NCBI GenBank assembly: GCA_964540825.1
Contig: CAZINT010000001.1
Coordinates: 142,735 to 206,734, forward strand
Direction: 5' to 3'
DNA: 64,000 bases
DNA from: an uncultured Gammaproteobacteria bacterium
Lineage (GTDB): Bacteria > Patescibacteriota > Patescibacteriia > Magasanikbacterales > GWA2-37-8
Made by a program: the position numbers and the translations under genes. Under the pieces are notes generated by a model. The model saw only the letters and a program-made list of their open reading frames with translations. It was not told the origin of the DNA and ran no database searches. Numbering within the stretch: the stretch's first letter is position 1; each line of letters starts with the position of its first letter. This document shows positions 5,762 through 56,687 of the stretch, in pieces.

Positions 5762-5843
5762 GGGCAGTTACCCAAGCGGTCAACGGGGGCAGACTGTAAA
5801 TCTGCTGGCTCAGCCTTCCAAGGTTCGAATCCTTGACTGCCCA
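5762..5843 (+). tRNA. tRNA-Tyr (GTA), long variable arm
   Basis: Acceptor GGGCAGT/ACTGCCC, anticodon loop cuGUAaa, long variable arm, T-loop TTCGAAT. Near-identical architecture to E. coli tRNA-Tyr. Confidence 0.85.
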
Positions 5844-5877
5844 CACGCTACGAGTCGTGAAAATACTCACATACCAT

Positions 5878-5953
5878 GCCGCCTTAGCTCAGCTGGTAGA
5901 GCAGCTGTTTTGTAAACAGCAGGTCGTCGGTCCGAGCCCGACAGGCGGCTCCA
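5878..5953 (+). tRNA. tRNA-Thr (TGT), CCA encoded
   Basis: Acceptor GCCGCCT/AGGCGGC, anticodon loop ttTGTaa, 3' CCA present. Confidence 0.85.
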
Positions 5954-5972
5954 ATAAACGTTGGAAACGAAT

Positions 5973-6045
5973 GCCGATGTAGCTCAGTTGGTAGAGCACG
6001 TCCATGGTAAGGACGGGGTCAGCGGTTCAAATCCGCTCATCGGCT
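5973..6045 (+). tRNA. tRNA-Thr (GGT)
   Basis: Acceptor GCCGATG/CATCGGC, anticodon stem CGTCC/GGACG with loop atGGTaa, T-loop TTCAAAT. Confidence 0.85.
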
Positions 6046-6053
6046 CTAAAGAA

Positions 6054-26162: not shown

Positions 26163-26172
26163 AGAGTGTTTT

Positions 26173-26439
26173 ATGGTAACCACCTGTGAACACGTTTCAG
26201 AAATTAAAGCTGTAACGCCGGTTACTCCGGATGGTTGTACTGATTGTCTCAAGACCGGAGACGAATGGGTGGCACTTCGCTTGTGCCTATCCTGCGGAAA
26301 TGTTGGTTGCTGTGATTCTTCCAAAAATAAACACGCCACCAAACATTTTGAAGCAAGTGGTCACCCCATTATGCAAGCCTATCAAGAAGGTAAAGAATGG
26401 AAATGGTGTTATGTAGACAAGACGTATATCGAAGTATAA
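26173..26439 (+). CDS. UBP-type zinc-finger (zf-UBP) domain protein
   Basis: 88 aa from MVTTCEH: CEH..C..C..W.ALRLCLSCGNVGCC..H..H..KW.C pattern. Confidence 0.65.
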   Translation: MVTTCEHVSEIKAVTPVTPDGCTDCLKTGDEWVALRLCLSCGNVGCCDSSKNKHATKHFEASGHPIMQAYQEGKEWKWCYVDKTYIEV

Positions 26440-26585
26440 ATAAAAAAATAATCCCGAAATACATCGGGATTATTTTTATTAAGAAGACTGTCCTCGCTCT
26501 AGGTACAAAATATATACGCAGAGCGAGAGTCAGGACAGCCTTGGGGTAGGCAGCCTTTCTCCTAAGACAAAGAAAGGATGGTAGG

Positions 26586-29639: not shown

Positions 29640-29657
29640 TTAAATTTTATATTTTAA

Positions 29658-29690
29658 AAAACAATCAGTACATACTGATTGTTTTTATTT
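29658..29690 (+). terminator. intrinsic terminator of surface protein gene
   Basis: AACAATCAGTA-cat-TACTGATTGTT followed by TTTTATTTT. Confidence 0.6.
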
Positions 29691-29744
29691 TACTAATACC
29701 AGAGTTATAACTAATTAACTTTCCTTTCCACTCCTTTGTGCGGA

Positions 29745-30150
29745 CAAAGGGTGGAGCCCAAAGCCGCCGAGCTACTGTCCGCCGTTGGTACTGCCATCGG
29801 TTCGTTCTCACTGCAGCACTAAGACTCGTTTCACTCAAACAATTAGTGTCGCTGCAAAAGCACCGTTCAAACTCGCTGGGCCAGTACGGGTCGTGTCCAA
29901 GTGCTCGGAGAGCCTAGCGAAGTACGAGGCCAACAATTCGCTTCCCGAGCGCTTGAGCGTTGAGCTCGGCAGTTCGAGATGAATTGGAACGTTCCGAAGG
30001 ACACCGGCCACGGTCGCGTCAAAGCGACATTGGCCGGTGAGTGACAATGAATCTGAACTGGCCGCGAAATGATCATCAGCTCGGCAGTTTTGGGCTCCAC
30101 CTTTTTGCTGTCAAAAAGGTGGTAAAGAAAGTTTGTGCGCTAAACTTTTT
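29745..30150 (+). repeat. GC-rich noncoding element A (candidate structured ncRNA); 3' half repeated, inverted, at 55076..55264
   Basis: No credible ORF. 29749-29759 is complementary to 30092-30101. Hairpins at 30004-30037 and 30097-30122. Ends in hairpin 30128-30148 followed by a T-run. ~75–80% identity to the minus strand of 55076-55264. Confidence 0.55.
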
Positions 30151-30152
30151 AA

Positions 30153-30181
30153 TTGACAGTAAAGGAGATTCTCGCTATACT
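30153..30181 (+). promoter_or_regulatory. sigma70-like promoter TTGACA-17-TATACT
   Basis: Consensus -35 (30153-30158) and near-consensus -10 (30176-30181), upstream of the CAP-domain gene. Confidence 0.55.
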
Positions 30182-38492: not shown

Positions 38493-39101
38493 ATGGTAAA
38501 AATTTCTTCTAAAATACAAAAAAAACAGCAATCGCTCAATGCCATAGCGGCGGAAATCGCCTGCTGCAAAATATGTCAGAAAAATAAAATTGGTGTATCG
38601 GTACCAGGGGAAGGCAACCCTGACGCTGCTATAGTTTTTTTGGGTGAGGCGCCCGGTAAGCAAGAAGCGATCACGGGCAGGCCGTTTATCGGTCGCTCCG
38701 GAAAAGTGTTGCGCGACCTCATTGGCGAACTTGGGCTTACTACCGAAGAAGTCTTTATAACCAGTCCGGTGAAGTATTTGCCAGAGTATGTAACACCCAC
38801 TCCCGAGGATATTGTTCATGGTAAAGTGCATTTAGAAAAACAATTGGCAATTATCGAGCCTAAAGTGATTGTGCTCTTAGGGCGCGTGGCAGCACTCGCC
38901 GTACTTGGTAATGTAGGAGCAGTTCTTAAAAATCACGGCACAGTCATAGAACAAGATGGGCGAAACTATTTTGTCACCATACATCCTGCAGCACCGCTGT
39001 ATGCCCCCAAACTTAAATCTGTTTTAGTTGCTGACTTTAAAAAATTGAAGCTTTTTTTAAAGCGCCAAGCTACGCCAGCTAAGTCGGGCTCTAAAAATTA
39101 A
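38493..39101 (+). CDS. uracil-DNA glycosylase, family 4
   Basis: GEGNPDAAIVFLGEAPGKQEAITGRPFIGRSGKVL (GEAPG motif) and a C-terminal HPAAPLY-type motif. Confidence 0.8.
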   Translation: MVKISSKIQKKQQSLNAIAAEIACCKICQKNKIGVSVPGEGNPDAAIVFLGEAPGKQEAITGRPFIGRSGKVLRDLIGELGLTTEEVFITSPVKYLPEYVTPTPEDIVHGKVHLEKQLAIIEPKVIVLLGRVAALAVLGNVGAVLKNHGTVIEQDGRNYFVTIHPAAPLYAPKLKSVLVADFKKLKLFLKRQATPAKSGSKN

Positions 39102-39201
39102 ATAATGGCTTAAGAAAGACCTTTTTTAGGGCGTATAATCCACTTGCCAAAATGCGCGAGAAAGAGTAAGATGCTGGAGAAATTAGTTATTAATAACCCC
39201 T

Positions 39202-42163: not shown

Positions 42164-42174
42164 AAAGCATTTTC

Positions 42175-42212
42175 AAAACAATCTTACTCTTAAGAGTAAG
42201 ATTGTTTTTTTT
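42175..42212 (+). terminator. intrinsic terminator after secDF
   Basis: AACAATCTTACTC-ttaa-GAGTAAGATTGTT followed by a T9 run. Confidence 0.65.
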
Positions 42213-42293
42213 TCTTGTGCATGGTATATTTTACAACAGTAATGATCGATAAAAGAGTAGCTTAAAATTTTTTTCTGGCAATTTACTTTTTGT

Positions 42294-42455
42294 ATGAGTG
42301 ATTCCTTCATCCGTCATCTCGTGGCCATCATCGCCACTATTATCTGTCTTCTAGCCTATTTTGCCGGCTATATCTCCGGTCAAAATGGCTGGTGGTGGAC
42401 TGCGGTAATGGTGCTTGTCATCTACGGCGGCGTCTATCGCATTATTGATAAATAG
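42294..42455 (+). CDS. small hypothetical membrane protein (53 aa)
   Basis: MSDSFIRHLVAIIATIICLLAYFAGYISGQNGWWWTAVMVLVIYGGVYRIIDK; two hydrophobic helices. Below the ORF-track cutoff. Confidence 0.3.
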   Translation: MSDSFIRHLVAIIATIICLLAYFAGYISGQNGWWWTAVMVLVIYGGVYRIIDK

Positions 42456-42548
42456 CTGATAGCTCGAAATTGGTAATGTGAAATATGCACTGAAGCAGCG
42501 TGTGAGTCCCTGCAGAACAAGCTACAAGATTTGAGTTACAAGAGTATT

Positions 42549-54961: not shown

Positions 54962-54964
54962 AAT

Positions 54965-55008
54965 AAAAAAGAGCCTTTTGATTATCAAGAGGCTCTTTTT
55001 TATTTGTC
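54965..55008. terminator. bidirectional intrinsic terminator
   Basis: AAAAAAGAGCCTTTTGAT-tatc-AAGAGGCTCTTTTTTATTT. Confidence 0.6.
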
Positions 55009-55019
55009 ATTTTTTTATT

Positions 55020-55264
55020 AGCGTGTCATTCCTGCGCAGGCGGGAACCCAGGGTTCCAGGCGCATACCTAGCGCGTTACCTTTTTGGCAGCAAAAAGGTA
55101 ACCGAAAAACTGCCGAGCTGATGATCATTTCGCGGCCAGTTCGGACTCATCAATGCTCAACTGCCAATGTTCCTGCGCCGGAACCGTGGCAGTTGTCCTG
55201 CGGAACGCACTGATTCATCTCGAACTGCCTGGCTCAACGCTCAAGCGCTCGGAAGGCGAAGCGA
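55020..55264 (-). repeat. GC-rich noncoding element B, inverted partial copy of element A
   Basis: Core 55076-55264 (minus strand) aligns with 29939-30122 (plus). Hairpins at 55076-55102 and 55159-55194. Extra palindromes CCTGCGCAGG (55031-40) and GAACCCaGGGTTC (55044-56). Abuts the cysS stop codon. Confidence 0.55.
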
Positions 55265-55271
55265 GCGTTTG

Positions 55272-56687
55272 TTATTTTGACCGAACTTTAGTACCGTCTT
55301 TGGTATCTTCTACTTCGTAACCCAAACTTTCGATTTCTTGGCGGAGACGATCGCTTTCAGGCCAGTTTTTCGACGTCCGAGCCTCGTCACGTCGTTTGAT
55401 TAATTCTTGAATATTTTTTGGAACCGGTTGAGATTGAATATTTTCTAATTCTGCAACTGATTTTTCAATTTTTAAACCAAGGATCTTATCAAATTTATAA
55501 ATCGTTTCAGTTGTTAGTCTGGAAGCTTTTAGCTTTTCCCATAAATAAGCGATTGTACCAGGGGTATCAAGGTCGTTATTAATACAATTAAGAAATCCTT
55601 CTTCAGCTATTTTTTGCTCCTTGAGCATCACGTCTTCTTCATGAATATAATCATTTTTTTCTTCTAGTTTTTTTAATTTTTTAACCGATTCGTAAAGATG
55701 GTTTAATCCATTTTCAGCCGCCTTTAAAGCCTCCCATGAAAAACTCAGTTGCTTGCGGTAGTGTGCTTGGAGCAAAAAATACCGGTAGGCGAGGGGATTG
55801 ATACCTTTGTCTTTAATGGTTTGGAGGGTAATAAAATTCTCTCCCGATTTAGCCATCTTGTCATTGTCGATGAGCAAAAATTCACCATGCAGCCAATAGT
55901 TGGCGAGTGGCTTGCCTTCCGCGGCTTCGCTTTGGGCGATTTCGTTGGTATGGTGGACGGGAATGTGGTCGATACCGCCACAGTGGATATCGAAGGGTTG
56001 GCCGAGGTATTTGGTGGCCATGGCTGAGCATTCGATATGCCAGCCGGGGAAACCGATCCCCCAGGGGCTGTCCCATTCCATTTGACGCTTAGTATCGTAA
56101 TCGGAAAACTTCCAGAGGGCAAAATCGGTAGCATTCTTTTTTTCGCCAATGTCGACACGGGCACCGGCTTGGAGGTGTTTGAGATCAAGTTTGGCGAGCT
56201 TGCCGTAGTCGGAGAGTCGGCTGGTGTCAAAATAAATACCGTCAGGCGTGCGATAGGTAAAACCTTTGTGTTCAAGTTTTTGGATTACAGCGATTTGCTC
56301 AGGGATATGGTCGGTTGCTTTGCACCAGGTGGTCGGTTCAATGATATTGAGGGCTGCCAGGTCATCTTTAAAGGCGACGGTGTACGCGGCGGCGATGTCC
56401 CAAGCACTCTTGCCTTCACGGGCAGCGCCCTTTTCCATTTTGTCTATTCCGTCGTCAGCGTCGTCGGTGAGGTGTCCAACGTCGGTAATATTCATGACGT
56501 GATTAACCGTGAAGCCGTTGTACGTTAAAACACGTTTAAGGATGTCTTCAAAAACATAGGTGCGTAAGTTGCCAATGTGGGCATAGTTATAGACAGTCGG
56601 GCCGCAGGTATACAAACTAACCGCTTGTCGTACAAGCGGGTTAAATGGTTTTTTCTCTCGATCCATTGTGTTGTAGAGTTCAAGCAT
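55272..56687 (-). CDS. cysS: cysteine--tRNA ligase
   Basis: HIGH ([17 protein letters not shown]), KMSKS (KMAKSGENF) and zinc-binding Cys/His. Confidence 0.9.

Follow-up and report, generated by a model that had tools for sequence, protein, structure and literature searches.

The bcr1 repeats of the B. cereus group (~155 bp) have a non-conserved distribution, and their multi-stem fold is kept by compensatory changes at the RNA level (PMC3184786). The ERIC/IRU and Correia (NEMIS) sequences are imperfect palindromes of 100-160 bp that occur in the 3' regions of genes, are co-transcribed with them and form long RNA hairpins that alter the processing or stability of the mRNA (PMC3184786). Here, we describe a structured repeat and compare it with these families. 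It was analysed in the window, that is, the whole 64-kb stretch of DNA under study, where one copy (copy B) is a non-coding unit of ~190 bases on the minus strand, 3' of cysS. The closest named homologs of the CysS and CAP-domain proteins of the window come from Candidatus Magasanikbacteria or Patescibacteria, and the gene content of the window (sortase, type IV pilus genes and a coupling-protein-like ATPase) fits that lineage.

Only a few non-coding RNAs and repeat families have been described from the very small genomes of Patescibacteria. We know of no described counterpart of the present unit family in this group. For comparison we used a sister MAG (GCA_964510495.1, loci L005 and L020) and a more distant genome (GCA_964634875.1, locus L014), the CysS of which is 69% identical. 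The sister MAG is titled 'uncultured Gammaproteobacteria', which is probably a taxonomic mislabel, as both in its genes and in its synteny it agrees with a Magasanikbacteria-like genome of the Patescibacteria.

RESULTS

Copy B lies between the cysS stop codon and an intrinsic terminator

An earlier note on this DNA had reported that an element present elsewhere in the window (locus A) recurs in inverted orientation at cysS with 75-80% identity. We confirmed this inverted copy by BLASTN of the A region against the window, where 29937-30120 (plus strand) aligned with 55078-55260 (minus strand) at 82.1% identity over 184 nt (E 2.5e-47), slightly above the claimed range. The three identical blocks and both hairpins also read exactly as they had been quoted. 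The features of the two loci are listed in Table 1.

Table 1. Features of the cysS locus and of locus A, with their coordinates in the window
Feature	Position	Strand	Remarks
Copy B core unit	55075..55255	-	181 nt; covariance model 216.7 bits, E about 1e-46
Copy B 5' leader CAAACGCTCGCTTCGC	55256..55271	-	directly 3' of cysS stop codon; from alignments and direct reading
Copy B 3' tail GCGCTAGGTATGCGCC	55059..55074	-	partly homologous to L005 and L014 tails; putative boundary
cysS (471 aa)	55272..56687	-	Pfam tRNA-synt_1e and CysS_C matches, homologs, ORF
Bidirectional intrinsic terminator	54962..55004	.	common to corA (+) and to cysS and copy B (-); terminator scan
GC-rich palindromic segment GTCATTCCTGCGCAGGCGGGAACCCAGGGTTCC	55020..55058	.	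separate from the repeat family; absent from copies A and L014
Copy A-right core unit	29942..30123	+	covariance model 202.5 bits; 80.7% identical to B; copy A of the earlier note
Copy A-left	29727..29911	-	covariance model 43.1 bits, E 3e-8; inverted relative to A-right
Central spacer between A unit 5' ends	29912..29941	.	both 5' leader motifs, GCGAAGT (reverse complement) and AATTCGC; direct reading
Left 'terminal inverted repeat' of A dimer	29717..29773	.	A-left 3' module: hairpin and AAAGGAAAGTT tail
Right 'terminal inverted repeat' of A dimer	30078..30133	.	A-right 3' module: hairpin and AAAGAAAGTT tail
Bidirectional terminator of upstream 441-aa surface protein gene	29657..29686	.	A dimer follows
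Near-consensus sigma-70 promoter of CAP-domain gene	30153..30181	+	TTGACA, 17 nt, TATACT; A dimer precedes

Copy B had been described as abutting the cysS stop codon and running into a terminator. The first part stood, as copy B begins 16 nt past the stop codon; the second did not hold for the terminal hairpin, which has no U tract and whose stem is followed by UAAAGAAAG in A or CGCGCUAGG in B. The real terminator is the one at 54962-55004, where the terminator scan found a 20-pair stem and then a T run, and there is none before it. Copy B is located between the stop codon and this terminator, and its modelled strand is the cysS strand. From this arrangement, copy B is probably in the 3' untranslated region of cysS and co-transcribed with it. 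Co-transcription is plausible only for copy B, because A-right and the L014 copy are downstream of terminators and A-left is antisense to both of its neighbours.

The segment 55020-55058, which had previously been counted as part of copy B, turned out to be a separate GC-rich palindrome that is 80% conserved and carries a 20-nt indel in the sister genome. It sits between copy B and the terminator and is present once in the window. Palindromic units of this type start with GTCATTCC or GTCATTGC and end with GGGAAC, GGGAAT or GCAATCC (window 55020-55058; L005:2312-2370; L020:9690-9722). In the sister genome, a version ~20 nt longer occupies the matching place, and a related unit, GTCATTGCGAGGCGCGGAGCGACGAAGCAATCC, was observed at the otherwise empty A site. 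By its sequence, this palindromic unit looks like a second, REP-like repeat family.

On the other side of copy B, the 3' third of cysS (window 55350-55650) has 50-68% identity to the sister gene, with indels, and the remainder of the gene has 85-90%. Judged from these identities, the C-terminal region of CysS, adjoining the hyper-conserved copy B, is evolving unusually fast.

Base pairing is preserved where the copies differ

RNAalifold analysis of A, B and the sister ortholog yielded 66 pairs, 8 of which were changed on both sides. A-right and B differ at 37 positions, and 25 of these fall in paired columns. Among the pairs that are standard in A, we observed 8 doubly compensated changes and 4 one-sided changes that still pair, and none was broken. 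Pairing is hence kept where the two copies differ, as had been claimed, and the compensation is not limited to the two helices originally named.

The significance of this pattern was assessed by moving the A/B substitutions to random columns with a matching starting base. The permutations gave on average 1.06 compensated and 15.5 broken pairs, as against 8 and 0 observed, and none of the 20000 permutations reached the observed values (P<5e-5).

In a plain MAFFT alignment of four copies, 97.1% of the cells form standard pairs, and 13 pairs are changed on both sides compared with 4.9 +/- 1.4 in shuffles (0/500 shuffles reached 13). When the registers were slid by 1-3 columns, only 27-41% of the cells remained paired and at most 3 pairs were changed on both sides. 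With five copies, including A-left, aligned to the model, standard pairs made up 95.6% of the cells, and 29 of the 60 pairs were changed on both sides (shuffles, 11.3 +/- 2.4); sliding by 1-3 columns again left 27-41% paired and at most 4 such pairs. Fitting the five copies to the model biases the resulting pair counts in favour of the structure, a caveat that mainly concerns A-left. Further copies thus also preserve the pairs and their differences are not random, and the proposal that pairing and not sequence is under selection became stronger as copies were added. At the level of the aligned copies, these results show that the fold of the unit is maintained by compensatory substitutions.

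The unit is an asymmetric, strand-specific rod

The unit is ~190-200 nt long. RNAalifold predicts an imperfect rod of ~150 nt with a three-way tip, which is followed by a U-rich linker and a 12-bp hairpin; a short purine-rich tail comes last. Upstream is a leader, ACUUCGCC, and the motif A(C/A)UUCGC(C/U) precedes all five copies. Conservation is highest at the two ends of the unit. At the rod base (CCGAGC/GCUCGG), which has conserved internal loops including two tandem G.A steps, the sequence itself is conserved. In the apical half, a three-way junction with a small and a long hairpin, conservation is confined to the pairing. The rod arms form an imperfect inverted repeat, but as a whole the unit is asymmetric, with a leader on its 5' side and a hairpin module on its 3' side.

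The modelled strand of copy B has an MFE of -84.3 kcal/mol versus -68.6 kcal/mol for the opposite strand, and it is the modelled strand that has the lower MFE in 5/5 copies, by 4-16 kcal/mol. We counted 15 G.U cells against 3 A.C cells; a G.U pair becomes an A.C mismatch on the other strand. The lower MFE of the sense strand and the excess of G.U indicate that the structure belongs to a single strand, either RNA or single-stranded DNA, and is not a symmetric feature of the duplex.

No reading frame is open in all the copies, stops occur in every sense frame of A-right and B, and the indels of the L014 copy are not multiples of three. On these sequence grounds the unit is non-coding, and the suggestion that the copies might be remnants of a decayed protein-coding element was not borne out, since they have no reading frame in common.

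We have also observed a match within the 3' part of the unit. The terminal-hairpin loop, CUGCC in B and CUGUC in A-right, is the complement of GGCAG on the 3' side of the rod base (55076-55120 and 30078-30122), and in A-left the rod-base segment and the loop change together (GCGG/CCGC). This match may represent an alternative pairing or a pseudoknot; its support is one covarying position, and it would form at the expense of the rod base. In addition, the leader of the L014 copy (L014:948-990) has a tandem duplication of ~13 nt (CAATCACTCAC / CAACGCTCAC) relative to B and L005.

Locus A consists of two head-to-head units

We searched the whole window, with filters off, using a covariance model built from four copies that did not include A-left. 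The search recovered A-left, which is only 48-52% identical to the other copies, and yet 53 of its 60 model pairs are standard. A-left also folds by itself into a rod and a 3' hairpin. The 417-nt 'element A' (29717-30133) hence comprises two units placed head to head, with their 3' hairpin modules pointing outward and their 5' ends 10-30 nt apart in GC-rich sequence. The earlier view of element A was right in that A-right matches B, and has to be revised in that the whole is a pair of inverted units and not one. The 57-nt 'terminal inverted repeats' seen by BLAST (29717-29773 against 30078-30133, a 79% reverse-complement match) are explained by this head-to-head arrangement.

From its organisation, the A dimer looks like the product of an inverted duplication or a nested insertion. 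We rejected the idea that A-right and copy B serve as inverted repeats of an inversion, since the distance between the CAP and cysS genes (~25-27 kb) and their orientation are unchanged in the L014 genome.

Copy B is the most conserved segment of the alignment with the sister genome

The sister genome has an ortholog of copy B at the same place, 3' of cysS (L005, contig CAZECR010000018.1), in a region that is syntenic with 52.7-60.7 kb of the window at about 82% identity. The copy B core and this ortholog are identical at 184 of 189 positions (97.4%; 97.4-97.8% for the 181-nt core unit), whereas the identities of corA (83.7%), cysS (78.7%), pilM (80.6%) and other intergenic DNA (78-82%) are much lower. 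With 0.82 as the background identity, a binomial model assigns 184/189 a probability of 5.7e-11. Copy B is the most conserved segment of the 8-kb alignment, and none of the four differences within its 181-nt core affects a column that the model pairs. Together, this highest conservation and the avoidance of the helices by the substitutions indicate that purifying selection acts on the fold of copy B and also on much of its sequence. The near-identity of B between the species could partly be due to gene conversion from unseen copies.

The junction of cysS with copy B is identical in independent assemblies from two sequencing runs. Short-read contigs end 30 nt into a 37-nt block that is common to B and A-right, which is the expected outcome of a repeat-induced branch in the assembly graph.

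The unit occurs at different sites in a few related genomes

The known family comprises five distinct copies (A-left, A-right, B and those of L005 and L014) from three genomes. The L014 copy is 74% identical to B and has further compensated pairs in the rod. It resides at another locus, where a terminator-like hairpin precedes it and a small GIY-YIG gene of the same orientation follows 45 nt downstream. We considered an association with GIY-YIG genes and rejected it, because the GIY-YIG gene of the window genome has no adjoining unit.

We found no unit 3' of cysS in five other loci (L009, L016, L017, L018 and L019). At the A site, two outgroups (L021 and L022) have only the terminator and the promoter, within 128-147 nt, and no unit is present at the A site of the sister genome (L020). 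Loss of the unit from the A site in the sister lineage is conceivable, because L020 keeps AAAGAAAGTTTG, the string that forms the A-right tail. Just upstream of the CAP gene, L020 also has an N run flanked by a duplicated stretch of ~60 nt (GAAAATTTGATTGACACTACAGG...TTTCGAAGAA; L020:9821-9920), a scaffolding artefact that slightly limits how the 'empty' A site can be read.

The units thus occupy different intergenic sites in different genomes, always adjoining intrinsic terminators, and their presence or absence at orthologous sites differs between close relatives. This is the pattern of a dispersed non-coding family, as in MITE of the ERIC/Correia/bcr1 type, and not that of a pair of single-copy RNA genes.

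Further copies were sought at several scales. The covariance model, with filters off, found none in the window beyond the three, and the flanking DNA of the window genome (5.4 kb to the right, 8.6 kb to the left) gave none, which makes 3 copies in ~78 kb in total. A second covariance model that included A-left found no new copies in 273 kb; from each of the related genomes, 20-40 kb was examined. A genome scan with exact conserved 18-22-mers, one genome per species, returned one true relative (L005) and four chance matches, and a metagenome scan with a word from the 37-nt block returned one chance match and nothing real. Both of these scans used the 37-nt block, and the 3'-hairpin pattern, which is conserved in L014, might have found more. 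Two viral scans with conserved 18-22-mers gave nothing, and phage and plasmid BLAST gave no match to the unit. The best reading of these data is that the family is restricted to a few related, Magasanikbacteria-like genomes of the Patescibacteria (CPR).

Several other features of these intergenic regions were observed. At the cysS-corA site of L009, where CysS is 76% identical, a terminator is followed by an ORF of 251 aa (L009:4005-4760) with 60-70% GC in a genome of ~40-45% GC and with no Pfam match; it is probably a foreign gene, which suggests that the site of convergent terminators between cysS and corA is an insertion hot spot. In L017, the 570-nt gap after cysS contains a small ORF with a signal-peptide-like N terminus and a Gly/Lys/Asp-rich tail, and GC-rich hairpins (L017:11533-11731), unrelated to the unit. 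The window itself has three intergenic gaps of 370-420 nt (26163-26585, 38832-39201 and 42164-42530) with no ORF of >=70 aa and no Rfam match at the gathering score. At 5762-6046 it has a cluster of three tRNAs (Tyr, Thr and Thr), and a short-read contig at the left end of the window stops inside this cluster, at ~5920.

Searches against described RNA and element families

At the gathering score, Rfam 15 detected only tRNAs in the window, and at E <= 10 with permissive filters no match overlapped the A or B core. A tRNA/tmRNA scan found nothing at the A and B loci.

Individual candidates were rejected on their own features. The unit is not a 6S RNA, as it has only internal loops of 1-3 nt, a branched tip and no Rfam match. 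It is not the repeat pair of a diversity-generating retroelement, as the substitutions affect all bases and are paired, and B starts past the stop codon. An integron attC site was dismissed, as the ends are CCGAGC... and ...GGTAAC or GGTGG, without core sites, and the neighbours are housekeeping genes and not cassettes. A CUGAUGA-like string reminiscent of the hammerhead ribozyme occurs in just two copies, B and L005, while A and L014 have other bases in its place, and there is no Rfam match. The string UGGCCGCG recalls a T-box, and here the unit is 3' of cysS and not in a 5' leader, again with no Rfam match.

We read the junctions of A, B, L005 and L014 for target-site duplications and found no direct repeat, the boundaries of the unit being uncertain. 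No transposase, reverse transcriptase or integrase was found in the 64-kb window, and neither the window nor ~270 kb of related loci yielded a cognate autonomous element or a transposase with matching ends.

DISCUSSION

Our results are best accounted for by a lineage-restricted family of structured repeats that spread in a MITE-like manner, is transcribed with its neighbours and provides a stable module at the RNA level. We give this combined reading a probability of about 0.5. In its descriptive core we have high confidence; the proposed mechanism of mRNA stability, which is drawn from analogy, is held with far less. The best reading of its past is that the family was formerly mobile. According to this combined reading, the units would have spread by a MITE-like or duplicative process and would be transcribed within the neighbouring transcripts, copy B in the 3' UTR of cysS, upstream of the 54962-55004 terminator. 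Once transcribed, the unit would act as a stable double-stranded RNA module (predicted free energy of the copy B rod, about -84 kcal/mol). By analogy with ERIC, Correia and bcr1, its likely role would be to protect or process the 3' end, or to offer proteins a binding platform, and in this way to influence host mRNA stability. The likely recognition surface would be the part that is conserved in sequence, namely the U-rich linker, the 3' hairpin and the base of the rod, internal loops included.

One alternative is that the copies are stand-alone small RNA genes, i.e. independent transcripts of ~200 nt that act in trans and whose copy number and location were changed by duplication and loss. 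Such an RNA might, for example, sequester a double-strand-binding or Sm/Hfq-like protein through its rod base, linker and 3' hairpin. The strand-specific fold fits this proposal, and so does a conservation across species that exceeds that of the protein genes, which is typical of RNA genes. The conserved leader motif is found upstream of every copy; however, a scan and direct reading revealed no convincing shared promoter-like site there, and the 5' ends of A-left and A-right leave only 10-30 nt of GC-rich sequence between them. Likewise, A-left and A-right each face a terminator-like hairpin on the 3' side, but the terminal hairpin of the unit is not followed by a U tract. It would also be unusual for a core RNA gene that related genomes have no copy in the 20-40 kb examined from each. 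We therefore regard stand-alone RNA genes as unlikely.

A non-autonomous DNA element is also improbable in our view. Here, the units would form hairpins of single-stranded DNA (IS200/IS605-derived or REPIN-like) and be moved in trans by a Y1 transposase encoded elsewhere, and what the compensatory changes maintain would be the DNA hairpins on which excision and insertion depend, and not an RNA. Since G.T pairs are tolerated in single-stranded DNA, the strand asymmetry agrees with this scheme as well as with RNA. The varying presence of the unit across orthologous sites is in keeping with it, although neither a Y1 nor any other transposase was found in the window or the related loci examined, and the junctions have no conserved target motif or duplication. 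The high conservation of the ends of the unit also favours it, and the inverted doublet at A resembles the organisation of REPINs, whereas the hairpins of REP or of IS200 ends are much shorter and simpler than the unit. Finally, an ortholog that is fixed at 97% identity between flanks of ~80% points to selection on the host copy, which is not predicted for a selfish element.

Chance similarity, an assembly artefact or decayed protein-coding fragments can hardly be entertained: the copies do come from metagenome-derived assemblies, with short-read contigs that break inside the repeat, but the A-B match is too strong (E 2.5e-47), two sequencing runs, assembled independently, both contain the cysS-B junction, the orthologous copy is present in a second species, and the copies share no reading frame and their substitutions cluster as compensated pairs and not at third codon positions.

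More speculatively, the units could belong to an undescribed functional or mobile RNA class specific to a lineage of Patescibacteria, an idea that we consider doubtful. They would then amount to more than a passive structured repeat. Such a class could be, for example, an RNA that sequesters a protein or guides processing, or a non-autonomous mobile element based on RNA, in which the rod base, the U-rich linker and the 3' hairpin could serve as the recognition handle for a partner. The conservation of B across species with its substitutions in unpaired columns, and the retention of the A-left fold at ~50% identity, are compatible with this idea.

A unit that is 97% identical between species whose genes differ by ~20%, and whose fold survives 50% divergence, is a well-supported candidate for a functional RNA or structured repeat in a group that is still poorly understood. 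The family also provides a concrete example on which to distinguish the selfish spread of repeats from selection at the level of the host. Its known distribution is narrow (three genomes), and its impact would be modest unless a partner or a phenotype emerges.

Comparison with known systems

Rod-shaped regulatory RNAs such as 6S are similar to the unit in size (~180-200 nt), in their rod-like fold and in the conservation of structure over sequence. In contrast to 6S, the unit has no large central bubble, its tip is branched, and it is multi-copy and absent from close relatives. REPINs resemble locus A, where two inverted units form a larger hairpin; however, REP units are 20-40 nt long and RAYT-dependent, whereas those described here are ~190 nt, and no RAYT was found in the available sequence.

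With the ERIC and Correia sequences, the unit shares the location 3' of a gene and the long imperfect hairpin. ERIC copies, as Wilson and Sharp reportedly noted in 2006, are unusually conserved between species. The ERIC and Correia families differ in having terminal inverted repeats, TA duplications and tens to hundreds of copies, whereas we observed 3 copies of the unit in ~78 kb and no TA or other duplication. As no target duplications were found and no cognate transposase is known, formal membership of the unit family among MITEs is not established.

The likeness to bcr1 is that of a dispersed, intergenic, structured repeat with compensatory changes at the RNA level. The bcr1 repeats are flanked by 5-bp direct repeats and are transcribed, while no duplication is visible at the unit, whose transcription is predicted. 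It is also longer, has a rod with a three-way tip and a separate 3' hairpin, belongs to another phylum and has no sequence similarity to bcr1. Hence, among known kinds, the unit comes closest to the structured intergenic repeats (bcr1, ERIC/IRU and Correia/NEMIS), with REPINs as the counterpart of the doublet, and the sequence family of the unit is new.
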